The notes: generated by a model not told the origin, from the sequence alone. A DNA stretch of 50,244 bases from a virus (IMGVR_UViG_3300032212_000015:1-50244); one strand, 5' to 3'. Positions 1-50,244 are shown, numbered from the stretch's first letter. Made by a program: numbers and translations.

Positions 1-1894
1 AACCAGTAGATCCAGTTGGGCCGCGTCCTACACCGTTAAATGATTCATTATTAGTGATTATCCCTCTAACCCATAAGCGAACATTGTCGTATACTGCAAC
101 CGTCACCCCTGCGTTAACAGTTAAATTTCCAAGATGATATATGTTTTTAGGTGTTGCTGCGCCGGTTAGTGAACAATTTGTAATTATTGTATTACCTGAT
201 AGCGCCGCGCCGATTTCAGTTGATAATGATGTCCAACCTTTGCCTGAGCCATCGTAATAAGAGTCTGGCAAGACATAAGCACTTGTAAAAGTCGCATAAG
301 GTGGGATTTCGCTTGATGAAGCTTGAAAGGTGCAATCAATCTCGCCACTTAATAAATCCCTTGATGTTTTAGTCACCTTCATCGACCTGGAAAGTCTATG
401 CGGTAAGACAGAGGTATCCATTGCAAAATCGACTAAGGTTTCCAGATAAATATACGGCGTGTCACCGACTTCTATATCGCCGCTATTAGGTAACAACTTA
501 GCTTTAAATTTCCATTGTGGATAAACCTTATCACTTGCCCATAGGTCAATTAAATTGGCAATAGTTTCATCCGTGTAATTATTAGCGAAAACGCCTCTAA
601 ATTTTTTCTCTTCAAAGTCTGTTTCTTGGTGTTTTGCAATACTATCTGTGTAAACTAAGGTGGTTGTTAGTTGATAGTCTTGTCTGTACTCTGACCAGTG
701 CCACTTAATACGATATTTATTTTTTAAATTTTTAAAATCATACTCTAAAGCACCATGCGACATTATCCGTTCACTAGTAATGAAAGTATCACGAATAAAA
801 TTTGGCAGGATTGCTACATTTCTTTTTAACCCGTGTGATCCGTCGGAATAAACCGGCATAAAGCAACCGATCATCGGAAGCAGTTCTTCTTCTATAAACT
901 CCTTTGCGTTAATATTTCGCAATCCCATGAAGCGACAAATAACACCTTTGCTATCGTCGGTCGTATCCCATAGGTCATCGCCAATACCTGTAAAATCATC
1001 GGCAGTGACATAAGTCGCATCTAACGTTAAACACCAGCCAGGAGGCAAGGTTTTCCCCGTTTGGCCATACAAGCCACCCAATTGAACGGCATACAATAAT
1101 TTAACGACCGGCAATTCCAAGTAAACGAATTCTTCTACTTTTGGTTGTCGGTTTAACTCTCTACCTGAATCGATTTGATGCTCTACTGCGACGGTTTGAA
1201 ATAAACCACGACCGCCTGTGTCAATGGTTAAGTAATCGCTTGTCCCATCTGACCCGACACCACTACAGCGAATTATTTCGTCTTCGATTTTCACATAAAA
1301 TACTTCTTGATTTGGCGCATCTGAATAACTTGAGCCGTGATCAACCAAGGAGTAAACCGAGTTATCGCCGACGCGAATTAAACTCGTTTCTGTAGCACTA
1401 AGGGTTGCATAAAGATTTGAGAAAGTTTCGGGAAATAGTTTTTTATCTTTTGCTATACGCTGAATGTCTTCTGACTTTAACGTATAAACTTTATCTTGAT
1501 AGGAAAGTGAACCTATTGCGGCGGTGGCTTCAATTTCATAATCACCCCATACCATTCCTTTAAAGCCAGAATAAACACGGACTCGTTTTAAACGAATCCC
1601 TTTATCTGCTTCTAGCTTTGTTTTTAATTTGTCGGATAGAGCACCAGCATTATCAAGAAATTTAAGCGTAATGCCACCTATTCCTGCAATCTCTTTCAGC
1701 TCTTGAGAGATGGCCGACCCACTTATAAGTGAATTAGCGAGAATATCGGCGCTTACTGGATAGGCCGAATCTGTGTGTGAAAGGATATATACAGGATCGG
1801 TAAAATCTGATGCAAAGTCTACGCGCACAGTAAATCGTGGCTCTCGACTTGCTGCTAGCATATGAGCCGAATATGAGTCGTTCAGGTTTCTCAT
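1..1894 (-). CDS. tail-tip/host-specificity protein, copy A (N-terminal ~631 codons; runs off the window start)
   Basis: Not in the ORF track because it is truncated. ATG at 1894 overlaps the stop of 1891..2307 (ATGA). Colinear with 35528..37421 at a constant offset of 35527. Confidence 0.93.
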   Translation of the reverse strand, partial: MRNLNDSYSAHMLAASREPRFTVRVDFASDFTDPVYILSHTDSAYPVSADILANSLISGSAISQELKEIAGIGGITLKFLDNAGALSDKLKTKLEADKGIRLKRVRVYSGFKGMVWGDYEIEATAAIGSLSYQDKVYTLKSEDIQRIAKDKKLFPETFSNLYATLSATETSLIRVGDNSVYSLVDHGSSYSDAPNQEVFYVKIEDEIIRCSGVGSDGTSDYLTIDTGGRGLFQTVAVEHQIDSGRELNRQPKVEEFVYLELPVVKLLYAVQLGGLYGQTGKTLPPGWCLTLDATYVTADDFTGIGDDLWDTTDDSKGVICRFMGLRNINAKEFIEEELLPMIGCFMPVYSDGSHGLKRNVAILPNFIRDTFITSERIMSHGALEYDFKNLKNKYRIKWHWSEYRQDYQLTTTLVYTDSIAKHQETDFEEKKFRGVFANNYTDETIANLIDLWASDKVYPQWKFKAKLLPNSGDIEVGDTPYIYLETLVDFAMDTSVLPHRLSRSMKVTKTSRDLLSGEIDCTFQASSSEIPPYATFTSAYVLPDSYYDGSGKGWTSLSTEIGAALSGNTIITNCSLTGAATPKNIYHLGNLTVNAGVTVAVYDNVRLWVRGIITNNESFNGVGRGPTGSTG

Positions 1895-1908
1895 AAATTA
1901 GCGTTATA
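1..1908. repeat. ~1.9-kb diverged direct repeat, copy 1 (copy 2 = 35528..37435)
   Basis: Direct alignment by eye: same offset at both ends, so no net indel; first 127 nt identical; mismatches mostly at third codon positions. Confidence 0.97.
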
Positions 1909-2307
1909 GATTACATTAAATGAAATGGTGAAGTAATCTGTCGATCCTTCTCGATTAAAAGAAGGATTACCATCTAGAATTACTGATTGAACATTGTCAG
2001 GACTAGCGTTAGCTCCATAGACATCAAGAGAAAAAGATTCGCCATTTCTGACGCTAGATAAAAACTCTCGCCAGTTGTCCCATTCAGTTGATCCTCTTAA
2101 AACATATTCTGAAGTAATAGCCCAACCTTCATCGTGACTATAAACAGTGGTTTGTGTTTTCCCGTTTATAGCTCTTGATGTTCGCTTGTCTGTTTTCCAT
2201 GTCTCATTAGCTTGAATTACATTGAAATCAAAATTATAACCAGTACCAGCACTATGGCCGCTTCGGATATATCCTCTATCTTCAGCGGTATAAGAGACAT
2301 TACTCAT
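1891..2307 (-). CDS. distal/minor tail protein, module A
   Basis: Lies between tape measure and tail tip. Homologous to 37418..37840 (SGHxAG, GKTQTT, WxEFxxSVRxGE, NASP, YNANL). Confidence 0.7.
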   Translation of the reverse strand: MSNVSYTAEDRGYIRSGHSAGTGYNFDFNVIQANETWKTDKRTSRAINGKTQTTVYSHDEGWAITSEYVLRGSTEWDNWREFLSSVRNGESFSLDVYGANASPDNVQSVILDGNPSFNREGSTDYFTISFNVIYNANL

Positions 2308-3830
2308 GCTGCTATAATCCTCTCACGTCCGTTTTCTGTTGATAAAACGACTTGATCATTATTAACTGCCTCCCTAAAGCCTTTAGTCACGACAGTTGTT
2401 AACAACTCATCACCTAAATGAATATTTATCGTTTGTTCTGGAGTCTCTTGGCGCTGAATTTGGCTAGACGGTAAAGACTCGGTAGGCGCTGAAGGAGCTG
2501 CAAAACTACCCCCACCTGAAGAGCCTGGAGACATTGACCCTATGGCGTGTACTTTAGCAATCCCCGCCACAAAGACTGCCGCTGCTGCTGCAAAATTAAA
2601 AGGGGCGGGTACACTTGCTAATGTTTTCGTATAGGCTTGATATGTATTCATCATTGACTCGGTAATTGCTGCGGCTTGATGAACCTTAAATGCTTTCTTT
2701 GATTGGTCTTTAAAAATTGAGGTTAAACTAGTAGCGGCCGATGCTACATCGCTAAAAGATTGCAATTGAAGCTGTTTTCGTTTCTGTGCTTTGCCGGCTT
2801 CTTCTTTTTCTATTTTATCTAGGTATTTTATATGAAGATCAAACCATAACTTTTCAAAGCCTTCGATCTTGGCGCTGTTTTCAGAGAGAAAATCGAACTT
2901 TCGTTCCCATGACTCCCTCTCTAAGTCTTCCTTACTCTTAAGGAAATTTCTAATATTATCTAATTCTTTGCTTTCAAAAGTAGAGTCAAATCCTTTAGGC
3001 TTAAAGGTTAAATCAATTTCTATAGGCTCGAAAAACGCGAAGTTGGTGGACAACCAAGAATTTAACTCTACAAATCGATCTTTAACCCAAACAACTAAAT
3101 CAGTGATCTTTTCAGATACCCATTTAATAATAGGCGCAAAGGTTAAGGCAATTTGATTGCCTAAACCCTGGAATGATTGACCCATGTTATAAGCAGCATC
3201 GTTAGCCGCCTCAAATTGGGCTAAGTCAGTTCTAGAAAGTGCCGTTCCAAAGCGCTCTGTCTGTTCCGCTGCCTTTCTTATCGCTTCTGAGCCCTGATCT
3301 ATTAAAGGCGCTAAAGCTCTGGCCTCATCACCCATTAAAGCTGATATAGCCGCTAATTGTTCGCCTCTTGTATTTAATCCTTGAATTGCGTCGGCATAGG
3401 TTGCAAATAATTCTGAAGGGCTTTGCTCTTGCAGGTCTTGAATATTAAAGTTAAATCGCTCTAGCCATTGGTTAGCCGCACCGCCACCGTTAGCCGCAAA
3501 CTCTCCAAGGCGTTTTTCGGCTTTTGTCAGCGCTTCAGCCATTGAATTTAAACCGGCACTAGTGTAAAGCTGTGTTGCTTGATTTAAAGCAGCTAAATCT
3601 TTAGTAGCAATTTGAAGCTTGTCGGATTGTTTTGCTAAAGCGTCACCCGCTGCAAACGATTGTTTAATGAGATAACCAAAGCCGCCAACACCAGCCAAAG
3701 CACCAATAGCAATAGTCGCTTTTTTGACAGTCCTGCCAAAGCCATCAAGTTTTTTATTTGCTTTATCGATACCTTCTACGAACTTGGCTGTATTAGTTCG
3801 TATATCAACAGCAACTACGCCTAATGTCAT
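2304..3830 (-). CDS. tail tape measure protein, module A (508 aa)
   Basis: Ala-rich helical protein after the chaperone genes; N-terminus LGVVAVDIRTNTAKF is typical of tape measures. Confidence 0.88.
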   Translation of the reverse strand: MTLGVVAVDIRTNTAKFVEGIDKANKKLDGFGRTVKKATIAIGALAGVGGFGYLIKQSFAAGDALAKQSDKLQIATKDLAALNQATQLYTSAGLNSMAEALTKAEKRLGEFAANGGGAANQWLERFNFNIQDLQEQSPSELFATYADAIQGLNTRGEQLAAISALMGDEARALAPLIDQGSEAIRKAAEQTERFGTALSRTDLAQFEAANDAAYNMGQSFQGLGNQIALTFAPIIKWVSEKITDLVVWVKDRFVELNSWLSTNFAFFEPIEIDLTFKPKGFDSTFESKELDNIRNFLKSKEDLERESWERKFDFLSENSAKIEGFEKLWFDLHIKYLDKIEKEEAGKAQKRKQLQLQSFSDVASAATSLTSIFKDQSKKAFKVHQAAAITESMMNTYQAYTKTLASVPAPFNFAAAAAVFVAGIAKVHAIGSMSPGSSGGGSFAAPSAPTESLPSSQIQRQETPEQTINIHLGDELLTTVVTKGFREAVNNDQVVLSTENGRERIIAA

Positions 3831-4138
3831 TTAAAAGCCGCCTTTAATTTTCCAATTAAGGATTTTTTAGAGTCTTTTGGTTTTTCGGTGAAAGGCATAA
3901 AATCAAGTGGGTTAAAAGTTTTTTGATTTTTGCCGCGATAACGATTTGCGCTCATAGCTAATACTTGAGCTATCATATAATCATTTCTATCTTGAGTAAT
4001 CGGGCTTACTGCGTGGTAAGCCATCCATTCGGTAAGCTCTTTACTTGATACCCGCTCTAATAATTCTTCTACTGTGCAGCCTAACCTTAAAGCCAGGTCA
4101 AAATAGAATTGATACTCAGAACGGGTTTTTAGTTTTTT
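3827..4138 (-). CDS. tail assembly chaperone, -1 frame extension (gpT-like)
   Basis: The -1 frame is open from the slippery site: KLKTRSEYQFYFDLALRLGCTVEELLERVSSKELTEWMAYH..., continuing into track ORF 3827..4024. Confidence 0.85.
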   Translation of the reverse strand, partial: KKLKTRSEYQFYFDLALRLGCTVEELLERVSSKELTEWMAYHAVSPITQDRNDYMIAQVLAMSANRYRGKNQKTFNPLDFMPFTEKPKDSKKSLIGKLKAAFK

Positions 4139-4479
4139 TCTATATCTCCCTGAGAATTTTCAGAAAGTCCATTTACATCTAATGAAGCACTTACTATGCT
4201 ATCGATAATAGTCCCGTCTATTGTTAGTATTTCATCAAGTTCGTTTTCTGAAAAAACAGGACTTCCGTCTTTATTTACCACCGACATTGCAACTATTAAT
4301 GCATTACTTTTTTGGCCTGTCTTGCCTGTTTCATCTTTTTGATTTTGAAATTCCTCATTCATAGAAACATAGTGAGCACGATCTTTACCGCTAAATACTT
4401 TTATAAATACCGGCTCATCTGCTCCAACGTCACGTTCAACAGGTTGTCTTTTCTTTAATAATGAATCTCTTATGCCCAT
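4129..4479 (-). CDS. tail assembly chaperone (gpG-like), module A
   Basis: Position after the tail tube; ends EKN* at the slippery site. Confidence 0.85.
   Translation of the reverse strand: MGIRDSLLKKRQPVERDVGADEPVFIKVFSGKDRAHYVSMNEEFQNQKDETGKTGQKSNALIVAMSVVNKDGSPVFSENELDEILTIDGTIIDSIVSASLDVNGLSENSQGDIEKN
4132..4138 (-). other. programmed -1 frameshift heptamer A AAA AAC
   Basis: GAA AAA AAC TAA ends the chaperone ORF and the -1 frame is open downstream. Confidence 0.85.
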
Positions 4480-4874
4480 GCCGTGATACTCGTAACGTCA
4501 ATTGTTACTGAACCAGTTAACTCAGCTTCAGAGCCGCCACTTTGTGAAAAATTCGTGATATAACCTGAAAAAGCTAGTGTGTCAGCGGTTGGGCCAGTGA
4601 TAACGATTTGAAAGTTTCTTAGCGTTTTGGCTAGCATGTCTGTTGTTATTTGCGCATGTTGTGTATCGTCGGGATCAAATACTAATTCTAATGTCGCCTC
4701 ACCGATATCAATCGTAGAAGGCGTTTTAGTTGGGCCGCTTGAACCAATGAAAAATTGCTTTAAAACATTAACCGTTTTAGATGGTGCTGAAAATCCCGTA
4801 ACTTGACCGATTGTGTCGAAGCTCACCCCGTTGTCGATTTGAAAACTTACGTCTTCACCTGAATAAACAGACAT
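4470..4874 (-). CDS. tail tube/major tail protein, module A (134 aa)
   Basis: Position; beta-rich with IGQVTGFSAP, DIGEATLELVFDP and FSGYITNF motifs typical of siphophage tubes. Confidence 0.85.
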   Translation of the reverse strand: MSVYSGEDVSFQIDNGVSFDTIGQVTGFSAPSKTVNVLKQFFIGSSGPTKTPSTIDIGEATLELVFDPDDTQHAQITTDMLAKTLRNFQIVITGPTADTLAFSGYITNFSQSGGSEAELTGSVTIDVTSITAWA

Positions 4875-4883
4875 TTTTCTCTC

Positions 4884-5249
4884 CTATTCTGTAAACCATA
4901 TACGAAACTCTAATAAAACCCGATAATTATTAGAGTCATCATCAAAATCGAAATCTTGATCGAAAATTAAAACTGATCTCAAGTTTGATGCTTTCACCGC
5001 TTCTTTTACTGCCTCCGCAAGCGCTTTTACTTGCGTGTAAGTCGATGAATAAACATCTATTTGAAATCTCCCGTTAGTTGTGCCCATCTCCCCGTCTAAT
5101 CCATTCACAGACAATCCGGTTATGCGTCGATAAACAACATAAGGGAAAGCGGTATTTTGTGGCGCTTTAACAGGGTATATTTTCGTTGACACAAGGGCAC
5201 TTACACCGGAATCATTAACCAGTGCAGAATATAAATTTTGCTCGCTCAT
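4884..5249 (-). CDS. tail terminator/completion protein (DUF3168-like)
   Basis: IYPxxAPQ..FPYVVY and RFQIDVYS motifs; position. Confidence 0.85.
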   Translation of the reverse strand: MSEQNLYSALVNDSGVSALVSTKIYPVKAPQNTAFPYVVYRRITGLSVNGLDGEMGTTNGRFQIDVYSSTYTQVKALAEAVKEAVKASNLRSVLIFDQDFDFDDDSNNYRVLLEFRIWFTE

Positions 5250-5692
5250 TTGAGTTTTTTAACTTCTCTGTCGATACCTTTTAGAATACGCTCTCTAATT
5301 CGCTTCACCGCAAAGTATCGCTTTGATTCATAGGCAGGTCTAAGCCAAGGTTTAGCACTCATTTTCGACGTGCCAAATTCTAAAAATGCGCCGTAATAAG
5401 CGAATTTAAGTGTCTTCACTAAAAAACTGAATACATTCTTTGGGACTCTTTTATTTCTAATAAGCCCTATATTCTTCTTTAAATAACCAGGATACCGATA
5501 GCCTTTTGCTTTAGATTTTCCAGCCCTCTTTAATTTACCATCCTGTCTAACTGGAACATTTCGTTGCGCTTCTTTTTTAACAATGTTTGCGCCTGCTCTA
5601 GTTGCTCCCCTTACGACGCGTCTTTGTACGTTCCCAGGTAATGATTTTAATTTTTTTTGTACTTCTTTTAAGCCTTCGATCTTAATCGACAT
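5246..5692 (-). CDS. HK97 gp10-like tail component
   Basis: Basic protein with YYGAFLEFGTSKMSAKPWLRPA. Confidence 0.88.
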   Translation of the reverse strand: MSIKIEGLKEVQKKLKSLPGNVQRRVVRGATRAGANIVKKEAQRNVPVRQDGKLKRAGKSKAKGYRYPGYLKKNIGLIRNKRVPKNVFSFLVKTLKFAYYGAFLEFGTSKMSAKPWLRPAYESKRYFAVKRIRERILKGIDREVKKLK

Positions 5693-6002
5693 TTTCAGTG
5701 CACATCATTTCGATATAACGGCTTCTTTCATCTATATTAATAACCGTTTCAATGTCGAATACTCTAGAATCATAAGAAATACGCATTTTTGTTGTTATTC
5801 CAGACAAGTATCTGGTTTTTATTTTATGCGTTACTTCGCTTTGTACTGACTCAGCATTGAAATATTCTTTGCCACTTATAGGCTTAATTTCAGCCCACAC
5901 TGTATTATAGGTAGACCATGCTTCAGAGACTTCACCAAACGAATTTTTGGTTTCTGTCACTTGTTGAATAGTGATCTGTTTATTTAATCTACCAGCAATC
6001 AA
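5682..6002 (-). CDS. head closure/head-tail adaptor (SPP1 gp16-like)
   Basis: AGRLNKQITIQ, VWAEIKPISGKEYF, MRISYDSRVFDI motifs. Confidence 0.88.
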   Translation of the reverse strand: MIAGRLNKQITIQQVTETKNSFGEVSEAWSTYNTVWAEIKPISGKEYFNAESVQSEVTHKIKTRYLSGITTKMRISYDSRVFDIETVINIDERSRYIEMMCTENVD

Positions 6003-6544
6003 AATTTGGCCAGCTTATAAGGAAAAATTAATGATTTATAGGCAGCTTTAATGCCTTCCAGCTCTTTTGGGTAATGACCGCCGTATAACTCCTCTATTTT
6101 TAACTTAACTGCATGTATTAAAGAAGGAGGTATAGAAGAATATCCACAGATAAATTGTATCTCTATTGCATTAGCACGATCATAAATAGACGGCCAACTT
6201 TGATTGTTAGCTAGTAAAATTTTCCCAGGATCACTACTTGAATCAACATCGTAAACACTTGTCGCTAGTGTTTGCTGTACATTATCAGTATCGTAATACT
6301 TTACGTGTGTTACAGATTGTAATTGACCAAATGGAAGCTCTATATCTTCAAATAAATCTAGAAATAGATTCCATGCCTGTGCATAAAGCTTTCGCCTTGT
6401 ATCGTTTTCTACTTGCGCTGTAGATGTCTTAATTAAATTAAGAATTAACGCATCTTCCGAAGTCCCGCTAACGCGCAAATGATCCTTTGCCTGTTGTAGT
6501 GTTACGGGATAACCCGAAGGATTACTTACTAGTACGCTTGGCAT
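5999..6544 (-). CDS. head-tail connector (gp6-like)
   Basis: PVTLQQAKDHLRV...EDALI motif. Confidence 0.88.
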   Translation of the reverse strand: MPSVLVSNPSGYPVTLQQAKDHLRVSGTSEDALILNLIKTSTAQVENDTRRKLYAQAWNLFLDLFEDIELPFGQLQSVTHVKYYDTDNVQQTLATSVYDVDSSSDPGKILLANNQSWPSIYDRANAIEIQFICGYSSIPPSLIHAVKLKIEELYGGHYPKELEGIKAAYKSLIFPYKLAKF

Positions 6545-6677
6545 TTGTTTTCTTTACTGGCTCTGCTAAACCTTTTTCAATGAAGCGCTTTGCTTCTGCT
6601 TCATCCATTTCAATCTCTTCACCGGCAGCATGTGAAAAATTTTCACCGGCAAGCGAAGTTAATAATTTCACTTTCAT
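6522..6677 (-). CDS. small capsid-adjacent protein (51 aa, MKVKLLTSLAGENFSHAAGEEIEMDEAEAKRFIEKGLAEPV...)
   Basis: Translated by hand, below the ORF-track cut-off; AGGTG RBS; typical small gene after an HK97-type capsid gene. Confidence 0.75.
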   Translation of the reverse strand: MKVKLLTSLAGENFSHAAGEEIEMDEAEAKRFIEKGLAEPVKKTNAKRTSK

Positions 6678-6688
6678 ATATCACCTAT

Positions 6689-6715
6689 AAAAAAGGGGCG
6701 CATTAAACGCCCCTT
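6689..6715 (-). terminator. intrinsic terminator after capsid A
   Basis: AAGGGGCG-N7-CGCCCCTT stem followed by a T run on the minus strand. Confidence 0.75.
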
Positions 6716-6719
6716 ATAG

Positions 6720-7907
6720 TTATACAGCCGCTTGAGTAAGTTTCTTAATTGCTGCGCTTAGTGTTACTTTTCCATCCATACGCTCGTACATGCGGAAGCC
6801 AACTTGACCATTAGCCGCATAAAGCTCATTAAGACGCTGTAAGACTCTATTACTTCTATCTGCGATAGTGTAGTAAGAAAGATCACCAAACAATACAGAA
6901 ACGTTAGTCGCAGCCATTGCAGGCATCGCGCTTGAAGCAACAACAGGACGACCAAGGATCATGTCTGGTTGGCCAGCTTGCAACCCAGGCTGCCATAAAT
7001 ATTGGCTATTGCCATCTTTAAGTTTACGCACTGCTTTCAACGTGGCATCAGCAGCAACCCATCGAGCGTTTCCACGATACATACGGCCCAAAGAATGGAA
7101 CAAATCAATAAGTTCATCAGCCGTGACCGCCGCAACCGCCGCCGCCGTAACGCCAGCAGAAGCACCAACCGTTAAGCCCGTTGGTTTTCCTGATCCATCA
7201 CCGGCAACAATGGCAGATTCCTCAGCAATACCAAAACGTTTACCAAAGTTCTCAGCAAGATAAGATTGAACATCGAAAAAAGCATCTTGAAGAAGCTCTT
7301 CAGAAACTTTAACGATGGTTCCTAGCTTATGAGCGCCTAAAACTACTTGACCAAATGCCGCATCTGACTCAGTGTAAGCCGCCTCTTCTGCTGTCCAAGT
7401 AGCTGTACCTAAAGTAGATTCGACAGGGATATTCCTATCTGATCCAGTTGAAATTACATTACAGTACTGTCGAAACTCGTTAATGTCTTGTAAAGCCGTT
7501 ACTAAGCTAGTTTCAAACTCAGTTGGAGTGATATATCCACCCTCTGAATCTGTACCAACTTGCAAAGCATTCAAAACACCAGAGTCTAAACTGTTAGAGC
7601 CGCGTCTAGCATACTTATCAAAGCTGTTTTTATACTCATCTGAGCCGAAAGCGTTCTTTTTATTTTCATTGCTTAGACCTGTATTGACGGAAGCGCTTAC
7701 AGGCTGATTAAGCTCACTTTCTAAATTAGACATCTTTTCAATTCGGTCAGCTTTATTTTTAAGCTCGCCTTGTTTAGTGTCTAACTTGTCAAATTGCTCT
7801 TGCTCTTCTGCATTTAGATCGCGCTTTTCACCATCTGCTTTTGAAAGCATTGCTTTCATCTGGTCAACGACTTGACCTCGTTCAAATAATACTTCGTTTA
7901 CGTTCAT
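6720..7907 (-). CDS. major capsid protein, HK97 family (N-terminal coiled-coil delta domain)
   Basis: GGYITPTEF, VSEELLQD, LKDGNSQYLWQP, ILGRPV, FGDLSYY motifs. Confidence 0.96.
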   Translation of the reverse strand: MNVNEVLFERGQVVDQMKAMLSKADGEKRDLNAEEQEQFDKLDTKQGELKNKADRIEKMSNLESELNQPVSASVNTGLSNENKKNAFGSDEYKNSFDKYARRGSNSLDSGVLNALQVGTDSEGGYITPTEFETSLVTALQDINEFRQYCNVISTGSDRNIPVESTLGTATWTAEEAAYTESDAAFGQVVLGAHKLGTIVKVSEELLQDAFFDVQSYLAENFGKRFGIAEESAIVAGDGSGKPTGLTVGASAGVTAAAVAAVTADELIDLFHSLGRMYRGNARWVAADATLKAVRKLKDGNSQYLWQPGLQAGQPDMILGRPVVASSAMPAMAATNVSVLFGDLSYYTIADRSNRVLQRLNELYAANGQVGFRMYERMDGKVTLSAAIKKLTQAAV

Positions 7908-7983
7908 CGTAAATTCCTCATATTTCAGGCATAAAAAAAACCTGCTTTCGCAGGCTGCTTGCAGGTTTCCACCTAATTGCTTT

Positions 7984-42431: not shown

Positions 42432-42491
42432 GTGTTTTTCCTCTTGAATTTGTGAAATAAAAACGCCGAATTTAATCGGCGCTTATTTTAT

Positions 42492-44567
42492 TTAAACAGG
42501 GTTTTTAGCCATTGTGCGGAAACTTAGTGGACTTACGCCTGCATCCATACGCACTTTGAATTCGGTACCATCAACCATCCAGCCTGCTTGTTGCTCAAGC
42601 ACTGGTCGATCGTTTCCATCCAGGTAAGAAACTTCAATGGTGTCGTGCATACCGGAGTTTGCAGCGCCATACCAGTTCGATGCACTAGCTGCATCCAAAC
42701 GAGCATCAGAAATCACCTCAAATGTACCACGCACACTGTTTGGCACAGTGTTGTTTTTGGCGCTTGCTCCGACTTCAAACTCTGAATCACGCACGACTTT
42801 TGCTGTGCCTTCAAGGGCTATTGGAACCAACAAGTTTGCTAGGCGGATATTAAGTGTGGCATCACCTTGTTTCTGTTTAGCCATTGCAACACGCATTGCA
42901 TCTACCGATGCTGTACTAATTGCGGCACCTGTTAACAAGTTGGAATGGTCTGCATGGAATAACGCTGTACCATCAGACATTGCAGGATTGCTGGTTAGAA
43001 TTGCGTAGACCAAATCACCAACTGTACGAATTGCAGCACGCCCCATTTTCATTGGTATGCGTGTAAATGCCGACAGGTCATCATTGATAATTGTCTGGCG
43101 GTTTATACTGAATAACTCGCCATATGTGGCCAACTGAATTGTTTCGCCGCTATCGCCAACCGTTGCGTATTTGTATTCTGCGCCTGGGCGTACTTGTCGA
43201 AGCGAAGGGAATGTGTCTAAATCACTACGATTAGCCACTTTAAAATCTGGTAATTCACCCACGTTTGTCCATGCTTGGAATGTTTCCTCGGCTTCGTCAT
43301 AGCCTTTAAGCATCGCTTTGTTTGCCACATTTGCTAGTAGGTTTGTAAAGTCTGAACCTCCGTGCGTGAACGCGGCAGCAACCACTTCCATTTTGTCCAT
43401 TTGCTCGGTTTTTACACCAGCGATGGACAAATACTTTCTTGCCATTTCCATCAACGAATAACCACGAAAGTTATTACGGCTATCATCTTTCTGCGCCAAT
43501 CCAGCGCGTACTAGTAACGCTGACTGTGCGCCTTGAGTAAAATTCTCTTGCTCTGTTACAAGCGTTTCAACATGTGGTGTGCGGGCCAAGGGCTCTGCTC
43601 CTTTTCCTAAATGGGCCAATAATTTGGAACTGGCCTGCGCTTCATCAATATCGTGATCGTCAATACAAAGATCCAATATCTCTTGGACACCATCACGACT
43701 TATAAAGGGTTTAAACTCTGAGCGTATAGCACTAACTCGCTGCTTGTTTGCTGCCAACACTTCTGCTGCGCTTGGTGCCGCAGGTGTTGCTGGTTCTGGT
43801 GTTGCTGTTGCGGCTGGTTCAGCAGGTGTTGCTGGGGTCGCCTTTGGTGTTTTACCTTTTGGAATAGGCATAGTTTGTTGCTCCTTTATGGTTTGAAGTG
43901 TGGCGACGACCGCCGCCGGTTTGAAATCTTTGGGTAAACTTGCTTGTAGCTTTGATCCAAGGAATCGCGATTTATCAAAACCTGCGGCTGCTGGCATTTC
44001 TTCTTCGATTATTTCATCAACGAACCCGAACTCCTGTGCTTCTGCGGCTGTATACCAGTGATCTTCACCATCGGTTAATAAATCCATGATGGTTTCTATG
44101 TCTTGCCCGGTTTTTCGTGTGTATGAGCTAGACATTGCTTTGGCATAAGTGTCTAACACGTCGGCGTATTCGCGGAGTTCCTTTGAGTTACCTACCGCAC
44201 CTCCCCAAGGGGCATGCACCATAAAAAGTGCGTTTTCTGCCATCTGTACCGTGTCACCAGCCATTGCAATTAACGAGGCAATTGAAACTGCTACGCCATC
44301 GACACGGACATTAATTTCTGCTTGGTGACTTCGAAGCGCGTTGAATATTGCTATGCCGTCTGATACAGACCCGCCATAGCTATTTATTCGCACTGTGATG
44401 GTTTCTACATCTAATTCTGATAGCTGTTCTGCGGTATCTTTTGCGGTGACGCTTTCGCTCCACCAGCTTTCACCAATGTCGCCATAGATTAACAGCTCTG
44501 CTTCCGATTCCCCCGCTGCGCGGATCTCATAGTTACTCGTCTGTTTCGCTGCTTTCTTTTTTGCCAT
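42492..44567 (-). CDS. ClpP protease-scaffold-major capsid fusion
   Basis: N-terminal S14 domain (RINSYGGSV, MVHAPW), Pro/Ala/Thr linker, capsid part (SDFTNLLANVANK, LATYGELFSINRQTIINDDL). Confidence 0.93.
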   Translation of the reverse strand: MAKKKAAKQTSNYEIRAAGESEAELLIYGDIGESWWSESVTAKDTAEQLSELDVETITVRINSYGGSVSDGIAIFNALRSHQAEINVRVDGVAVSIASLIAMAGDTVQMAENALFMVHAPWGGAVGNSKELREYADVLDTYAKAMSSSYTRKTGQDIETIMDLLTDGEDHWYTAAEAQEFGFVDEIIEEEMPAAAGFDKSRFLGSKLQASLPKDFKPAAVVATLQTIKEQQTMPIPKGKTPKATPATPAEPAATATPEPATPAAPSAAEVLAANKQRVSAIRSEFKPFISRDGVQEILDLCIDDHDIDEAQASSKLLAHLGKGAEPLARTPHVETLVTEQENFTQGAQSALLVRAGLAQKDDSRNNFRGYSLMEMARKYLSIAGVKTEQMDKMEVVAAAFTHGGSDFTNLLANVANKAMLKGYDEAEETFQAWTNVGELPDFKVANRSDLDTFPSLRQVRPGAEYKYATVGDSGETIQLATYGELFSINRQTIINDDLSAFTRIPMKMGRAAIRTVGDLVYAILTSNPAMSDGTALFHADHSNLLTGAAISTASVDAMRVAMAKQKQGDATLNIRLANLLVPIALEGTAKVVRDSEFEVGASAKNNTVPNSVRGTFEVISDARLDAASASNWYGAANSGMHDTIEVSYLDGNDRPVLEQQAGWMVDGTEFKVRMDAGVSPLSFRTMAKNPV

Positions 44568-46080
44568 CGTCGGTTTCCTCTTCCTTTAACGAAGAAGCCC
44601 CGGTTTGTGCCGGGGCTTCGTTTTGTGTGCCTTTGTCGTGTTTCGGGTCGGTGGTAAATATAAGGCCATCATCATCATTTTGCTGCCGCCATACTTTGAT
44701 TTGTTGGCGCACATTCTGAGGATTACCTCCTGCTGAACGTATATTCTGTTGTGCCGATGCATAGCCTGCCCGCTCTTTTCTCTCCATTGCATCGACTTCA
44801 TCTTGCGGTTTTATCCATGGCATTGGTGGCCCACGATAGTCTGCATCGTAAAGGGTTAATGGGTTTATATCTCTGGGCACTTTTATTTGTCTTGATGCTA
44901 TTGCCATTTGTACAAAGCGTGTTTTTATTGGCCGGCTATGCATGCCGACAAACATTCGCGTTAACGCTTCGTAATGAATCCAGTTTTCGACAAGCTCTTG
45001 ACGCTGCGCCGAATAGGTTCCGTTATAATTTTTTGTTATAGAGCTGTTACCGGACCCGGTTCCTGCTGCGACACGGCGCGACATAGTGTCATGAAACGGT
45101 GTTAGTAATGACGATGGGCGGTTGCTGTCAATCGTGCCCACATCTTCACCCTGTCTTAAATTATCAAAACCCATTCCTGGCTTAATGCTGAAGGACCGCT
45201 CTGTTTCTCCGGGTGATGGTGGAGTGTATTCTTCGGGTGTGCCTTTTTTAATATAGAAACTTAATGCCGCTGCTATTCTAGCAGCGACCCTCTCTGATTC
45301 CTCGTAGTCTTTTAAATCTTCAATTCGTGTGATAACGGGCGAGAATATCGATACTCCACGTGCCTGACCGAAACGACCAGCTAATTTTGGGTGTAACATC
45401 TTATCTGCTGAAACACGCTTGGTGTTCAAATCAATTCGCCAAGTATCAGCGCCAGGATGTTGCTTTAAAACATGATATGCGCGCGCTCTATTCCATGCGT
45501 TACGCTCAACCCCTTGAGTAATTTTCTTTGAATCATCATTAAGGTCAAATGGTAATAGATCAGATTCGATCAGCTCAATTGAAAATGGCACTCTACTCCC
45601 GTGATCAAGTCCAGGTATTGAGCCTTCAAGAAATTGAACCAAATACTCTCCGTCACGAAACAATGTACGCGCCGCGAGTCTTTCTGTTGCTACATCATCC
45701 ATACCCCATGTAACATTTAATGTTGGTGCAATATCTTTCCACAGCTCTAATAATTCGTTAGCGAAATCTTCATGAATATCACCGTCGAATGTTTTTGGTA
45801 AAGGCTCCCAGCTTATGCCGTTAGGTCCGACTGTACCATCGACAAGAGTGTCTAGTACCGCACTAGCTAAATCATAATTCTGCTCTAGTTGTCTTGCATA
45901 CCCTCTTAAAGCAGGGCCAGCACGACCGACGACCGAATCACCACTACTATTATCTGGTTTTAATTTACGTAACCGAGATGGGTTTGCTGCCTCGTAAGCT
46001 GCTAGCGCTTTTCGATATTGTTCACGCTTAAACGCCCACGCTGGTGAGACTGTACGTATGGCTGACTCTATAATTTTCAT
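44533..46080 (-). CDS. portal protein, lambda family
   Basis: YEAA, ARQLEQN, GQARGVS, DYEESERVAARIAA, YSAQRQELVE, MPWI.P. Confidence 0.94.
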   Translation of the reverse strand: MKIIESAIRTVSPAWAFKREQYRKALAAYEAANPSRLRKLKPDNSSGDSVVGRAGPALRGYARQLEQNYDLASAVLDTLVDGTVGPNGISWEPLPKTFDGDIHEDFANELLELWKDIAPTLNVTWGMDDVATERLAARTLFRDGEYLVQFLEGSIPGLDHGSRVPFSIELIESDLLPFDLNDDSKKITQGVERNAWNRARAYHVLKQHPGADTWRIDLNTKRVSADKMLHPKLAGRFGQARGVSIFSPVITRIEDLKDYEESERVAARIAAALSFYIKKGTPEEYTPPSPGETERSFSIKPGMGFDNLRQGEDVGTIDSNRPSSLLTPFHDTMSRRVAAGTGSGNSSITKNYNGTYSAQRQELVENWIHYEALTRMFVGMHSRPIKTRFVQMAIASRQIKVPRDINPLTLYDADYRGPPMPWIKPQDEVDAMERKERAGYASAQQNIRSAGGNPQNVRQQIKVWRQQNDDDGLIFTTDPKHDKGTQNEAPAQTGASSLKEEETDDGKKESSETDE

Positions 46081-46298
46081 TATCTAAAGTCCGCCAACGT
46101 CACCATATTTGATCCACCTTTGCTTTTTGACTCTTCTTGTCGTAATTTGTTTTCCCATTCCTGACGACCTTTGCGCAATTCGGTTAAATTTGCACGTGTA
46201 TACGACGTACCATCAATCGAATACGCTTGACCCTTTAGTACTTTTTTTTCTGCTTCGTTGTATAAAGCAATCATTTCGCTGGCTGTACTCATATCCAA
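46080..46298 (-). CDS. gpW-like head-tail joining protein
   Basis: AEKKVLKGQAYSI....TRANL; lies between TerL and portal. Confidence 0.85.
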   Translation of the reverse strand: MDMSTASEMIALYNEAEKKVLKGQAYSIDGTSYTRANLTELRKGRQEWENKLRQEESKSKGGSNMVTLADFR

Positions 46299-48367
46299 TC
46301 GTCTCCACTGGTGTTGATCCAGTTATCTTTTGGTGCTTGATTTGTAATTGGTTCTGATGTCTTGTGCTCAGGCTCACTAAACAAATCAACTTGTTTTAAA
46401 CGCGTTTCTAAATCATCCCAGTGCTTATCAGTCATTAAATGAATTTTTAGTGCTCGTGCTGCATGTAGGTTGTAAACCTCACAGTCCCAAAACTCTACGG
46501 CTTGCCCGGCTTTTTGTTGCCATGCTCGACGACCTGCCCTGTTGGGCGCTTTGACTTCGCCGGTCATTTGTTTGAAGTAATCGTCTCGCACATCTTTGTA
46601 GTAGTGCATGCGACCTGGACCACTAGCGGTCAACTTCATTCGCCCGGCGATTAGGTCTTTTGCTTTGTGTGTACCTATTTGATAGACCAGCAAACCATAT
46701 TTAGCAGCCTTAGTATTGTTGCGACCCTTAGTATCTATTGCGCGTGGTTTGCTGAAGATCTCCCGCGATCCATAGTCATTGGATGAGCCTTTACCTGCCA
46801 TTAACATCACGCCATGCCTTTGACGTGATCTTACATTAGTATACGCTGCATCGGATGTTGTGCCGTCCGATGTATCAATGGTTATTCCTTCTATGCGCAG
46901 CTTGAAACCTTGCTCATGTTCGATGGGATCAAATAAATATTTATCCAATTCTTTCCAGACCGGATCGTTTTTGTCTATTACGTTGCCATATATCTCTGCA
47001 GCGTAGATCAACCAGCTTTCTTCGCCTTTGCCCCATCCTTTTATTTTTATGGCAATTCGATTGTGCTGAAGATCAACCCCGGCAGTTAACCTGTATGCAC
47101 CAATCGGGACTATTAATTCTTGATAGTCTTCACAGCGTTCACGCAAGATATCCACATCCGGCGCGTCTGACTTAAATTCGTATGATCGCCCTAGCTTTTG
47201 ATTGACAAATTTTATGCGTTTGCTTTCGTCGCCTTGTTCGGCTAGATGTTCAGCTTCTAAATATTCTCGGGCTACATCACCCAATGAGGTGCCAGGGATG
47301 CAGGCATATACTTCGCCTAGTTCTTTAAAACCGGCCTTTCCAAAAAATGGTTTTGTGGCTACCCACCCGCAATTCTCGTCGCCCGCTCCAATGGCGCTGA
47401 ATACGGTTTCTCTGATGTTTTTTTGCCGTTGGTAGTCGTCCCATTCGGATTGGCAGTTGGGGCAAACATAACGCGCCGTCTCTGGCTTTGAATAGCCATA
47501 GATTTCATGACGGTGGCCACTTATTTCACCTGTTTCTTTATCAACATCGATTGCACCTTCTTTGCCATCCCATGTAACGTTATCCCAATCAAGTACATGT
47601 TTATCGCCGCAATCGTGGCATTCTATCGGCAACACTCTTGCGTCGGATGCTTCGATACGATGCTCGGTTTTAGATAAACCCTTGACTGCTGGTGTACCAC
47701 CCACAATCATTTTTGAATTTGTATAGCGTTTTAAACGCTCTTCCAGGTTTGATATTGAATCACCCTGGCCTTTGACGTCGTCGCTGGTGTCGTCTGGCTC
47801 TTCAACAACACCCAGGCCAACAGATGAAACGGACTTTACATTACCCGGTGAATTTGACCCGACAATGTTTAAAAATCCATTATCCCAGCTTTTTAAATCC
47901 CACCGATTGCCGGACTTGCGCGCCGTGGACATGTCCACAATGTTTTCCAGCCACGTATTTGCTTTCGCTGCTGGTACTAACTTTTGATCGTGGAAGTTTT
48001 TACCATCTTTCTCTTTAGCAAACAGCAACATGATAGGGAGCTGCTTACCGATGGTTGTATCTCTTATGCGTTTGAACACATAAGCAATTAAAAAATAGGT
48101 CCAACCTATCTGCGCTGCTTTCATTAAATCCACTTCGTGGACTTTTGGATCATCTAACGCTGCCGCAACACCGAGAAAATACGGTGCATAATAAAAACTA
48201 TATAATCCACTAATGTCACCGCTAACGGCGGGCAGTTTAAAATGGCTCTTAATCGCTTCTGCTGTGGGCTCTATTTTTGGTATTGTAAAATTATTCGCCG
48301 CTTGCGATAAGATCGCGGCCAACTTTTTCCGCGTGGTCTTTAATTCGCTCGGTTGCAGGGATAGCAA
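46289..48367 (-). CDS. terL: terminase large subunit, lambda GpA family (start uncertain)
   Basis: MKAAQIGWT Walker A, VVEEPD, GGTP, CxxC pairs, TAGVDLQ, DCEVY. Confidence 0.94.
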   Translation of the reverse strand: MLSLQPSELKTTRKKLAAILSQAANNFTIPKIEPTAEAIKSHFKLPAVSGDISGLYSFYYAPYFLGVAAALDDPKVHEVDLMKAAQIGWTYFLIAYVFKRIRDTTIGKQLPIMLLFAKEKDGKNFHDQKLVPAAKANTWLENIVDMSTARKSGNRWDLKSWDNGFLNIVGSNSPGNVKSVSSVGLGVVEEPDDTSDDVKGQGDSISNLEERLKRYTNSKMIVGGTPAVKGLSKTEHRIEASDARVLPIECHDCGDKHVLDWDNVTWDGKEGAIDVDKETGEISGHRHEIYGYSKPETARYVCPNCQSEWDDYQRQKNIRETVFSAIGAGDENCGWVATKPFFGKAGFKELGEVYACIPGTSLGDVAREYLEAEHLAEQGDESKRIKFVNQKLGRSYEFKSDAPDVDILRERCEDYQELIVPIGAYRLTAGVDLQHNRIAIKIKGWGKGEESWLIYAAEIYGNVIDKNDPVWKELDKYLFDPIEHEQGFKLRIEGITIDTSDGTTSDAAYTNVRSRQRHGVMLMAGKGSSNDYGSREIFSKPRAIDTKGRNNTKAAKYGLLVYQIGTHKAKDLIAGRMKLTASGPGRMHYYKDVRDDYFKQMTGEVKAPNRAGRRAWQQKAGQAVEFWDCEVYNLHAARALKIHLMTDKHWDDLETRLKQVDLFSEPEHKTSEPITNQAPKDNWINTSGDDWI

Positions 48368-48947
48368 TGTCTTCCACCAATTTTGGTTCTACTGTTATTT
48401 TGTAGGTGCTTTGTATCTCGCCAACCAACTTGTGAAACCCTTGCTGGATTTCTCGATTTGTTGATCGCGCCCATTCATTCATTACACCCGCGACATCCTC
48501 CCCCAATATTAAATTTCCTAAACGCTCGTTATAATCCAAACGAGCAAGCGCGGTTTTAATCATTGACTCTTCAGCCCGCGCCTTAGATAAATTTGCCTGA
48601 TCATCACCACCACGGCCAGCGGCTTTCTCGCGCATGTCGCGTATATAAGCGGTTGTGATTTCTGATAGTGTATGTTGTTTGTGATCGATATCGAGCGTGC
48701 GCAACACATCACGCAAATTTCGCTCTGACATATCTAAATGTTTTGCAATCTCTACTTGTGTTGGTTTTTCTTCTTTTCGCTTTGCTTCTGTTTTTAAGTG
48801 TTCTATGTACTTTCTTACCAGGCCTATTATGTGGAATTTGCCGTTTTGACGATCTATGATGCCGTCTTTTACAAGCTTTGCCAGTTCGTTTGGTGTAACA
48901 CCAATTAGACGCGATGCCGCATCCGAATCTAGCAATCCTTCACTCAC
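48291..48947 (-). CDS. terS: terminase small subunit, Nu1-like
   Basis: HTH segments (TQVEIAKHLDMSER), AYIRDMREKAAGR, coiled-coil; upstream of GpA. Confidence 0.82.
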   Translation of the reverse strand: MSEGLLDSDAASRLIGVTPNELAKLVKDGIIDRQNGKFHIIGLVRKYIEHLKTEAKRKEEKPTQVEIAKHLDMSERNLRDVLRTLDIDHKQHTLSEITTAYIRDMREKAAGRGGDDQANLSKARAEESMIKTALARLDYNERLGNLILGEDVAGVMNEWARSTNREIQQGFHKLVGEIQSTYKITVEPKLVEDIAIPATERIKDHAEKVGRDLIASGE

Positions 48948-50166
48948 TTAAATCAACACCTCTTTCTTTTGCAATTTCTTCAAATGTTCGACCGTCGCCA
49001 ACTAGCGTGGCTTTTTGCCCGGTGAAGTTTTGCCAGCGATTTATAATTACATCACAGTAATATGTTTCTAATTCCATTAAATATGCTTTGCATGCATTTT
49101 TTTCTGCAGCTATGAGGGTTGATCCAGAACCACCGAATAGATCCAATATTGAACCTATGTTTTTATAATACTCAATTACCCAGTCTATCAAAGCAATAGG
49201 CTTTTGCGTTGGATGAATTCTTTTTATTCCGTTTTCGGAGCCCTTGATCATGCCTTTCCATATATGTCTAAATATTCTAACGCTTGACCATTTTGAGCGA
49301 ACCCATGCTAGCTCGCAATCGGACTGTGTATCTTTGTGTTTTTCTTCAACTCTCTTATCCCAAACAAACCAACTTGCCGACTGCGGAACCACATGCGCGT
49401 AATAATTAGCGCCCCACCATACCTGCCTGATAATTTTTAGTTCTTCACATATTTTAAATGCTTTCTCTGCGTATTCTGTCGAGTCATCTATAAAGTCCGG
49501 CAGCTTACTATTCTCCAATAGCCCCCCCCGATCCGACCTATCTCCTTTTACACCAATACCATAGGGAGGATCCGTATGAACCAAATCTATTTTTTCACCA
49601 TCCAAAAGCGTTAGTATTTGTTCCTTGCATGTTGAGTCTCCACACATTAAGCGATGGCTTCCTAGTTTCCAAACATCGCCCTTAACGGTTATTGGTTCGC
49701 TTTCTAATCCTTTGACCTCATCTTCGTCCGTTAGCCCCTGAGAACTATTAGCTGCCTGGATTATGTTAGCGATATCGTTCTCGCTAAACCCCGTCAAGGT
49801 GTTGTCATAACCCATTTCGGCTAAGTCGCCTAACTCCAAAGCTAGCAGCTCTTCATCCCAGCCAGCTTTTTCTGCCAGCTTATTGTCAGCAATTACATAA
49901 GCACGTTTTTGTGCTTCGTTTAAATGCGACAATTCAATAACAGGAACCTCGGACATGCCAAGTTTTTGCGCTGCCATCAATCGACCGTGACCAGCGATTA
50001 TGCCGTTGCTACCATCCACCAAAATCGGGTTAGTAAAACCAAATTCATTAATTGACGTGGCAACCTCTGAAATTTGCTCATCGCTATGCGTTCGAGTATT
50101 ACGCACATATGGCACCAATAAGGCAACATCACGATATTCTATTTTTAATTGCTCTTTTGTCTTCAA
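48940..50166 (-). CDS. ParB-like domain plus DNA (N6-A/N4-C) methyltransferase
   Basis: PYVRNTRTH, IIAGHGRL, IADNK; TDPPY, HPTQKP, DLFGGSGST. Confidence 0.93.
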   Translation of the reverse strand: MKTKEQLKIEYRDVALLVPYVRNTRTHSDEQISEVATSINEFGFTNPILVDGSNGIIAGHGRLMAAQKLGMSEVPVIELSHLNEAQKRAYVIADNKLAEKAGWDEELLALELGDLAEMGYDNTLTGFSENDIANIIQAANSSQGLTDEDEVKGLESEPITVKGDVWKLGSHRLMCGDSTCKEQILTLLDGEKIDLVHTDPPYGIGVKGDRSDRGGLLENSKLPDFIDDSTEYAEKAFKICEELKIIRQVWWGANYYAHVVPQSASWFVWDKRVEEKHKDTQSDCELAWVRSKWSSVRIFRHIWKGMIKGSENGIKRIHPTQKPIALIDWVIEYYKNIGSILDLFGGSGSTLIAAEKNACKAYLMELETYYCDVIINRWQNFTGQKATLVGDGRTFEEIAKERGVDLSE

Positions 50167-50189
50167 ATATTCAACCCATAATTAGTCGG

Positions 50190-50244
50190 AACCGGAACCC
50201 CCTATAGGCCCGCAAATCTATAAAAAAACTGCGCGCTACGTACC
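50190..50244 (-). other. putative lambda-like cos end of module B at the window end
   Basis: The minus strand begins GGTACGTAGCG CGCAGTTTT, compare lambda GGGCGGCGACCT CGCGGGTTTT; upstream of MTase-terS. Confidence 0.45.

Follow-up and report, generated by a model that had tools for sequence, protein, structure and literature searches.

The window, that is, the whole stretch of 50,244 nucleotides analysed here, is a single metagenomic virus contig, placed by IMG/VR in the record class "linear" and rated there as 100% complete. It contains two unrelated packaging, head and tail-shaft modules, an HK97-like one (module A, reading from 12498 to 1891) and a lambda-like one (module B, reading from 50166 to 37418), and the PHROGs matches of both confirm this part of a first-pass annotation of the sequence. 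The 59 ORFs scanned include one integrase, one repressor, one O-like initiator with one DnaB, and one lysis cassette, while neither a whole tRNA nor host genes were found in the window. Its sole repeat pairs bases 1-1920 with bases 35528-37447 (94.3% nucleotide identity, ungapped).

Module A occupies the minus strand at 1891-12498, from the HNH endonuclease gene to that of a 138-aa distal tail protein, as delimited by PHROGs matches and frameshift frames. Its genes follow the HK97-like order: HNH endonuclease (12184-12498, phrog_2323), small terminase TerS (11722-12096, phrog_83), large terminase TerL (10064-11722, phrog_9), portal (8622-10067, phrog_12), ClpP-type protease (7984-8622, phrog_94), and a major head protein with a predicted HK97 fold (6720-7907, phrog_10). 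The remaining products assigned with PHROGs are four connector proteins, a 134-aa major tail protein (4470-4874), a chaperone with a -1 frameshift site (4129-4479), and the tape measure (2304-3830), all encoded on the same strand. Upstream of the HNH gene, five ORFs at 12498-15448 of the minus strand represent late genes of unassigned role (98, 148, 395, 198, and 95 aa). The 95-aa protein contains a Gp77 fibre-tail adaptor domain (PF23148, E 2.9e-21), the 395- and 198-aa proteins are rich in Ser, Thr, Gly, and Ala, and the GC content of this stretch is 0.437 vs. 0.37-0.40 in its surroundings.

Module B, likewise on the minus strand (37418-50166, PHROGs), extends from a ParB-N/DNA methyltransferase gene (48940-50166) to that of a 140-aa distal tail protein, which is 44% identical to its 138-aa counterpart in module A. 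The packaging genes are arranged in the lambda-like order, with a Nu1-like TerS (48291-48947, phrog_57, E 3e-12), a GpA-type TerL (46289-48367, phrog_15, E 4e-151), a gpW-like adaptor (46080-46292, phrog_118, E 1e-21), and a lambda-type portal (44533-46080, phrog_21, E 1e-92). They are followed by genes of a protease-capsid fusion (42492-44567, phrog_133) and, according to PHROGs matches, a decoration protein (42063-42431), a tail terminator (41270-41701), a 312-aa tail protein (40241-41179), a chaperone with a -1 frameshift site (PHROGs and frame scan), and a tape measure (37827-39599), all on the minus strand. As had been proposed, each module has a chaperone frameshift of its own: each chaperone gene terminates in a slippery site made of a run of A, past which frame -1 is open for about 100 codons.

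The last 70 bases of the window (50175-50244, minus strand) form a cos-like element, assigned on the basis of a conserved block and of their alignment with bases 1-70, the left end, of the lambda genome; the contig ends inside the left block of this element. The core block, TATAGGGGGTTCCG, shows no variation across 11 of 11 B-type loci, which were chosen for the alignment. In relatives the element lies directly upstream of the TerS gene, whereas in module B the ParB-N/methyltransferase gene is placed between the two. The cos-like element, together with the GpA-type TerL, the gpW-like adaptor, and the portal type, makes up the likeness of module B to the cos/Nu1/GpA region of phage lambda, from which module B differs by the fusion of protease and capsid; the identity of its TerL to those of named phages does not exceed 56%. 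No word of at least 14 bases from the last 400 bases of the window recurs elsewhere in it, and a search of the window for a right end of phage B, a second cos copy or a link to the core found no recurrence of any word of at least 9 bases from its last 20 bases. Base 50244 is probably the true DNA end of phage B.

Between the two modules lie genes of control, replication, integration and lysis. The O-like initiator (19158-19826, phrog_16167, E 7e-38) and the DnaB-like helicase (17891-19225, phrog_19, E 1e-94) are encoded on the minus strand (17891-19826), and the repressor on the plus strand (21417-21869, phrog_12107, E 7.6e-18). The leftward early operon (plus strand, 23073-28916, PHROGs) includes an exonuclease gene (24358-25002, phrog_149, E 1e-36) and has as its last gene that of a tyrosine integrase (27957-28916, phrog_1, E 1.2e-41). 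The first-pass annotation had described this core as single, and one integrase, attP, repressor, replication block, and lysis cassette were indeed found; the proposed Q is less firm, as a protein with paired CxxC motifs (15971-16516, minus strand) gives a weak match (phrog_127, E 5e-4) and may be a Q-like antiterminator.

Adjacent to the integrase gene, as in tRNA-targeting tyrosine integrase systems, is an attP core (28981-29028, minus strand) that corresponds to the final 48 nt, at the 3' side, of a tRNA-His(GTG) gene and is identical at 48 of 48 positions to this part of an intact tRNA-His gene in a Gammaproteobacteria MAG (L169). A 50-mer comprising attP is also present in a metagenomic locus, L168. 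The attP-like junction between the tail end and the integrase would also fit a tandem double lysogen. A metallophosphoesterase-like gene (29184-30125, minus strand, phrog_221, E 1.5e-19) separates attP from the lysis cassette (30298-31570, minus strand), which encodes two small membrane proteins of 92 and 87 aa, recognised by their hydrophobic segments, and a 101-aa candidate endolysin. The latter has no match in Pfam, NCBIfam or PHROGs, and its best matches among solved structures are weak ones to Hedgehog N-domains (E about 1e-3). Hedgehog shares the LAS peptidase fold, and the 101-aa protein is a candidate LAS-type zinc peptidase endolysin.

The tail-tip gene as printed in the record (31593-37421, minus strand) encodes a J-like protein of 1942 aa with an Fn3 domain (phrog_31, central tail fiber J, E 1.3e-23). 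Module A runs into a second allele of this gene (2-1894, minus strand), truncated at the contig end after its first 631 codons. The view that both modules lead into the same tail tip thus holds in the sense that the two genes are nearly identical, the A copy being seen for 631 of 1942 codons only. Over these 631 residues the A allele and the sequence at 35528-37421 share 94.3% nucleotide and 98.7% amino acid identity, and the codon differences between them comprise 92 synonymous and 8 non-synonymous ones. The similarity begins sharply, 26 nt upstream of the start codon.

Bases 1-127 are an exact copy of bases 35528-35654 with no mismatch; the first mismatch falls at base 128, and 109 mismatches are present in 128-1920. 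This overlap of the contig end with its interior marks the branch point at which the two tip alleles merge. Since the run of 127 nt is the longest one identical between the two tip copies and the next longest is 104 nt, base 1 is the first point at which two paths would merge at k = 127. The assembler behind the record and its k value are inferred; 127 is the largest k in the usual metaSPAdes setting. Joining base 1 to base 35527 gives an A tip gene of 1942 codons without an internal stop. The printed tip gene is a chimera, with the B allele above 35654 and phage A sequence below.

One public sequencing run, X1, contains a fraction of 0.87 of the sampled words of 31000-40999, and its contigs from an independent assembly at k = 31 were aligned on 30245-50244. 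The depths given for them are contig means from this one run, which is possibly the window's own sample, and are not copy numbers. Module B is represented by a contig of 12,982 nt and depth 16.1 that covers 37263-50244 without differences and ends at 50244. Module A is represented by a contig of 13,448 nt and depth 102.2, in which 11 of 11 expected differences were found and the loose end of which corresponds to 1909-1938 of the window. A contig of 2822 nt (depth 107.1) spans 34471-37292 with 94 differences, the number of mismatches between the A and B alleles there; 40 of the 40 listed differences are A letters, and below 35655 there are none. The fourth contig (5502 nt, depth 90) covers the window from 34500 to 30245 with 0 differences and stops 30 nt into the attP core. 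In this assembly the A allele of the tip gene continues seamlessly into the sequence from 35527 to 34471, so that the 35,527-bp circle of phage A is closed. If base 1 joins base 35527, phage A (1-35527, minus strand) is a temperate siphophage with a complete genome of 35,527 bp. The phage B part (35655-50244, minus strand) comprises the left genome end, the genes of packaging, head, and tail shaft, and the first 589 codons of the B tip allele.

Results of our analysis indicate that the record is in all likelihood a chimera, formed when two phages of the same microbial-mat community were co-assembled. This reading is supported by the 127-nt overlap, by the closure of phage A, by the unequal depths, by relatives that have a single module each, and by the cos-like end; a k-length overlap at the join, unequal abundance, and one source resolved without the other are what characterises an inter-genome chimera. 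An abundant phage A (1-35654) would have been fused at a common stretch to a fragment of a rarer phage B (35655-50244). Phage A would possess the HK97-like module, the J-like tip, the lysis cassette, the tRNA-His attP, the integrase, and lambda-like early and replication genes, and would appear in the assembly graph as a cycle that closes on itself (window 1-35527). Phage B would be a lambda-like cos phage, about six-fold rarer and represented by its left 14.6 kb only, which comprise cos, the genes of the ParB-methyltransferase, of the Nu1/GpA-type terminase, of the head and of the tail shaft, and the beginning of the tip gene. Where the tip alleles first share an identical run of at least 127 nt, both paths would merge in a graph of k = 127, and the assembler would thus pass from the physical end of B into the A cycle, make one turn, and stop at the re-entered common 127-mer. 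Phage B presumably has its own right half, which is unseen in the window.

The first-pass annotation had itself listed co-assembly of two sister phages, but with a swap of the whole virion module around a common core, and of its proposal the co-assembly is borne out by the 127-mer overlap, the depths, and the closure of A, while nothing observed ties B to the core. It is unlikely that B has the tip, lysis, att/int, and core sequences of A, differs from it in a module of 11-13 kb, and had its backbone collapsed by the assembler; a milder form of the cointegrate reading given below, with A and B as sister phages on one backbone after a recent swap of the whole virion module, is similarly unlikely. 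Such a history would agree with the clean start of similarity 26 nt before the tip start codon and with the contig path that leads from the B allele into common sequence. Against it, the depth of the shared segment 28999-34500 (90) does not equal the sum of A and B, about 118, that had been expected of two phages collapsed by the assembler; it is not above the A-only depth of 102.2, to which B would add about 16, so that the path of B after 35654 is not fixed by the depths, which as contig means are coarse for such a sum. For 34471-35654 (107.1) the expected sum is at best compatible. The k = 31 graph forks at 34471-34500, which also speaks against a common backbone, as does composition: the GC content is 0.399 in module A and 0.37-0.39 in the core but 0.442 in module B, and the tetranucleotide correlation (r) to the core is 0.76-0.82 for module A and 0.60-0.61 for module B, which places module A closer to the core. 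The window lacks a right end of B or a second cos copy. Should the DNA of B end at cos, a k-mer link between the core and 50244 is not to be expected, and the missing overlap at 50244 is therefore not decisive against sister phages.

The 6.3-fold difference in depth between modules A and B (102.2 vs. 16.1) is the inequality that had been named beforehand as a sign against both modules lying on one element. It bears on a tandem or adjacent arrangement of prophages, B and then A, at tRNA-His, in which the window would be a true piece of chromosome cut by repeats at both ends, with A over-represented after induction. The attP at 28981-29028 has the form of a tandem junction, the break at base 1 could also be due to a repeat, and A and B probably share a host because their tips are related. 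Nevertheless, we regard this arrangement, suggested earlier as a cointegrate or tandem double lysogen, as very unlikely: apart from the depths, the B contig stops at one and the same base, 50244, inside the cos-like element in two assemblies of different k and has no continuation into early genes, and the window below 35655 is the high-depth A version with zero differences. Host DNA and a whole tRNA are absent from the window, beyond which the flanks would lie, and neither host flanks with attL and attR nor the equal depth of a tandem double lysogen were observed within it.

The same depths bear on the earlier suggestion that one element truly carries both modules and makes two kinds of virion that have one receptor-binding tip in common, which is almost certainly not the case. 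In favour of it, both modules look intact, with a terminase, a portal, a protease, a capsid, a chaperone frameshift, and a tape measure in each, and the differences between the tip alleles are mostly synonymous (92 vs. 8 non-synonymous). The depth of B, however, is about one sixth that of A and not the 1:1 stoichiometry of a single molecule, phage A closes without B, and the contig end is a k-mer overlap. As a second full tip gene would be needed, the dual-virion molecule would measure at least about 54 kb. This would exceed the usual content of T=7 capsids of this kind and counts further against it, as does the occurrence of both terminase types in no relative examined. It is also extremely unlikely that the rare B molecules (about 16 per 100 or so of A) are cointegrates with both modules, that is, a minority dual-virion element, in which a B-type terminase would cut the molecules at the cos-like site at 50244 and package them together with a further tip gene located beyond module A in the downstream direction.

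The search for relatives agrees with the chimeric origin of the record, since only a single type of module was seen in each relative examined. Of 160 loci retrieved with one or the other TerL, none contained both terminases within +/-10 kb. The closest integrase (70%) was found in a complete record of 36.6 kb that contains the A-type TerL only, and a 43-kb terminal-repeat record contains the B-type TerL and no A-type one. Two contigs from MAGs of the host family each carry a related tip, joined in one to B-type genes and in the other to A-type connector genes. Five relatives of the integrase share almost no other sequence with the window in the stretches fetched. No match to either half of the window was found by megablast against 50,697 phage records, exact searches with the initial 64 and the final 70 bases yielded 0 matches each in IMG/VR, from which near-identical records may have been withheld, and no near-identical second assembly of phage A or B was found in the other collections searched. 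No relative of the tip protein was found in IMG/VR or GTDB genomes, and 277 pattern matches in JGI metagenomes yielded one locus, L168, with a third tip variant. This variant is uninformative on the A/B join.

A dual-virion phage would be remarkable if true, but the evidence points to an assembly product. The record rated as 100% complete would then be one complete 35.5-kb phage with 14.6 kb of another, and such a record would inflate the genome size and gene content of a catalogue; the exact overlap of a contig end with an internal k-mer offers a cheap screen for chimeras of this type. On the biological side, we would be dealing with two co-occurring phages of an uncultured gammaproteobacterium that have unrelated heads and tail shafts and a common, recently exchanged tip gene. 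What remains is ordinary phage mosaicism and nothing else unusual.

Besides the cos region of lambda, three known phenomena resemble the arrangement described here. As described in PMC5610896, highly similar regions of co-existing viruses cause chimeric contigs, which in the simulated viromes of that work made up less than 5% of contigs of at least 10 kb, with more of them produced by metaSPAdes than by MEGAHIT. The window resembles such contigs in that two co-existing viruses are joined at a highly similar region; it differs from them in that the join is placed to the base (35654/35655), one partner is complete as a closed cycle, and the terminus of the other is probably a physical end of its DNA. 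Tandem double lysogens likewise have two prophage-like units side by side with a junction of attP form, but here the depths are unequal, host flanks are absent, and B ends at a cos-like site. Mosaicism is common in lambdoid and HK97-like temperate phages, and phages A and B share with them the combination of unrelated head and tail-shaft modules with homologous tips at a sharp boundary at the gene start, a pattern that is seen at lower identity in the two MAG contigs of the host family. In contrast to those phages, the partners found here were obtained from a single sample and have retained 94% identity over 1.9 kb, which suggests that the tip gene was swapped recently.

Results of our analysis indicate that the record is very probably a co-assembly of two phages, in which phage A (1-35654), whose genome is complete when closed to a circle of 35,527 bp, would be fused with 14.6 kb from the left part of phage B, which is rarer and lambda-like, the fusion point being a 127-nt stretch common to the A and B alleles of the tail-tip gene. 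The window takes up a whole IMG/VR virus record (50,244 bases, class 'linear') with a CheckV completeness estimate of 100%, and no near relative of it was found among 50,697 deposited phage genomes. Comparison of 59 ORFs with PHROGs, Pfam or NCBIfam families confirmed the gene content reported in the first-pass annotation, including the layout at the end of both chaperone genes, where an A-run is followed by a ~100-codon open -1 frame.

Along the minus strand from 50244 downwards, module B (50166-37418) encodes a ParB-N/DNA-methyltransferase, small terminase, GpA-type large terminase (phrog_15, E 4e-151), gpW-like adaptor, lambda-type portal, protease-capsid fusion (phrog_133, E 1e-217), decoration protein, tail terminator, 312-aa tail protein, chaperone, 590-aa tape measure, and a 140-aa protein. 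It is followed, on the same strand, by the gene of a J-like tail tip (1942 aa; phrog_31), a lysis cassette of two small membrane proteins and a 101-aa protein, and a metallophosphoesterase-like gene. The sole matches of the 101-aa protein are Hedgehog N-domain structures (E about 1e-3), a fold common to LAS zinc peptidases as well. The plus strand carries the repressor gene and an early operon with a tyrosine integrase gene at its end, while an O-like initiator, DnaB helicase, resolvase-like protein, small nucleases, a Q-like candidate (weak match, E 5e-4), and, between the region of the latter and module A, five late genes with no assigned role are encoded on the minus strand. Module A (12498-1891, minus strand) comprises genes of HNH, TerS, TerL (phrog_9, E 8e-172), portal, ClpP protease, major head protein (phrog_10), four connector proteins, a 134-aa major tail protein, chaperone, 508-aa tape measure, and a 138-aa protein, and is followed by the first 631 codons of the A-copy tip gene (minus strand), which runs off the contig.

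Four late genes upstream of the HNH gene (12498-15026) have a higher GC content (0.437) and encode a 95-aa protein in which a podophage Gp77 fibre-tail adaptor domain was recognized (E 2.9e-21), 198- and 395-aa proteins rich in Ser/Thr/Gly/Ala, and a 148-aa protein; these genes may specify side fibres, for which the right end of the phage A genome is an unusual place. A 168-aa ORF of the immunity region (22326-22832, minus strand), located between the repressor gene and the leftward operon, has a lipoprotein-like signal (LTAC motif) and no family match, and may encode a surface protein expressed in lysogeny. Distinct from the packaging HNH gene (12184-12498), two minus-strand genes of the late-early region possibly encode homing endonucleases, one being T5orf172/GIY-YIG-like (15582-15974) and the other an HNH gene of 90 aa (16845-17117).

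The sole repeat in the window, 1-1920 vs. 35528-37447, shows 94.3% nucleotide identity without gaps and, as protein, 98.7% identity across 631 residues. The codons of the two tip copies differ by 92 synonymous and 8 non-synonymous changes, and therefore the copies are diverged, selected alleles of one gene. The similarity of the A and B sides ends 26 nt upstream of the tip start codon; identity falls to 44% for the products of the genes next upstream (138 vs. 140 aa) and to ~30% for the tape measures. Positions 1-127 match 35528-35654 exactly, base 128 is the first mismatch, and the longest identical run within 128-1920 is 104 nt, so base 1 would be the exact point at which the allele paths first merge in a de Bruijn graph of k=127, which is the largest k in the usual metaSPAdes setting for such metagenomes. 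The implied graph consists of a cycle 1..35527 closing on itself and a side branch 35655..50244.

A public microbial mat metagenome run (X1; k=31 contigs), in which 0.87 of the sampled words of 31000-40999 are present, is a possible source sample of the window. Six X1 records aligned to 30245-50244 with a likeness of at least 90%, including short matches from other genomes (records 5 and 6). Over 34471-37292, record 2 (2822 nt, depth 107.1) differs from the window at 94 positions, the exact count of A/B mismatches in this span; all 40 differences listed are copy A letters and none lies below 35655, so the A allele runs seamlessly into 35527-34471, closing phage A. Record 4 (13,448 nt, depth 102.2) corresponds to module A; in 37263-37435 it shows all 11 of the differences expected, and its loose end is identical to 1909-1938. 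Record 1 (5502 nt, depth 90) runs from 34500 to 30245 with zero differences, and its far end, as reckoned from its length, is 28999, a position 30 nt inside the att core. Record 3 (12,982 nt, depth 16.1) spans 37263-50244 with zero differences and stops at 50244. The B allele of 35655-37262 is not among the X1 records aligned to 30245-50244, which is consistent with the missing 13% of words and with the loss of rare variants from contigs. The X1 contigs fork at 34471-34500, inside the tip gene (depth 107.1 above, 90 below), and this may be where B or another variant departs from the A sequence, which would mean a different receptor-binding end.

By these depths, which are contig means of one run and not derived from raw reads, module B is ~6.3x rarer than module A and ~5.6x rarer than the shared segment. 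Both modules on one molecule would mean equal depth; the module depths (16.1 vs. 102.2) and the closure of phage A without B speak against the proposal that one element makes two virion types, and we consider a true dual-virion element highly improbable. Tandem prophages, of which A would be induced, are an improbable source of the record. Of the reading of two co-assembled sister phages with a swapped virion module, also put forward in the first-pass annotation, the co-assembly part is supported by the 127-nt overlap, the closure of A, and the unequal depths of A and B, but the depth of the shared segment (90) is not the sum of A and B that had been expected for two collapsed phages. Co-assembly as estimated here includes the unlikely case that B has the whole backbone of A.

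The GC content of module A (0.399) and module B (0.442), with 0.37-0.39 in the core, and the tetranucleotide correlation with the core (r 0.76-0.82 vs. 0.60-0.61) hint that module A may be the core's own. Among 160 IMG/VR loci retrieved with the A or the B TerL, none had both terminase types within +/-10 kb. The closest integrase (70%) is that of a 36.6-kb terminal-repeat genome, which encodes a TerL of A type (41%) and none of B type, and whose size agrees with that of the 35.5-kb phage A; a 43-kb terminal-repeat record encodes a B-type TerL (61%) and no A-type TerL. The attP core (28981-29028) equals the last 48 nt of an intact, unoccupied tRNA-His(GTG) gene of an uncultured Gammaproteobacteria MAG (L169 3124-3171), which points to the host group. 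Tip relatives (33-39% identity) are present in 3 of 75 genomes of the family of that MAG; two were fetched, as the MAG contigs G072:C46 (L174/L175) and G014:C40 (L176), each with a single-module phage region. The tip relative (32-37% identity) and a homologue of the 138/140-aa protein adjoin B-type genes on one contig (TerL 58%, tail protein 42%) and A-type connector genes on the other. Tip genes in this host group thus pass between the two virion types, and each of the elements is of a single type. A metagenome contig of another data set (L168 1-7656) carries a third tip variant, 92.8% identical to 35309-34350 and then divergent; after it come the same att core (50 nt) and a stretch of 110 nt that matches 26248-26357, its order of tip, att, and early genes being collinear with the window.

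Words of at least 14 nt from the last 400 bases, and of at least 9 nt from the last 20, have no second copy in the window, so a repeat is not the cause of the contig end at 50244. Within the last 70 bases (50175-50244) is a conserved cos-like element matched by BLAST in dozens of B-type TerL loci. In four loci with ORFs checked (L049, L008, L041, L045, about 9510-9590), its distance to the TerS gene downstream is 20-45 nt; in the window, the ParB-N/methyltransferase gene separates it from TerS. In an alignment with 11 hand-picked B-type loci, no change is seen in the block ATAGGGGGTTCCG.TTC, and the start of the window's sequence falls within the conserved left block of the element. Another X1 contig (5967 nt, depth 67) contains a 42-nt copy of the element with 4 differences. 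Both assemblies, that of the window and that with k=31, end at the identical base, 50244; an upstream fork from strain variants would likewise stop both assemblies at one base. We infer that 50244 is at or adjoining the cos cut of B, so B DNA in the sample would be linear and virion-type, beginning there. Bases 1-70 of phage lambda align with the window's last-70-base region, and the window's last base lies a few nucleotides inside the position of lambda base 1, the mature left end.
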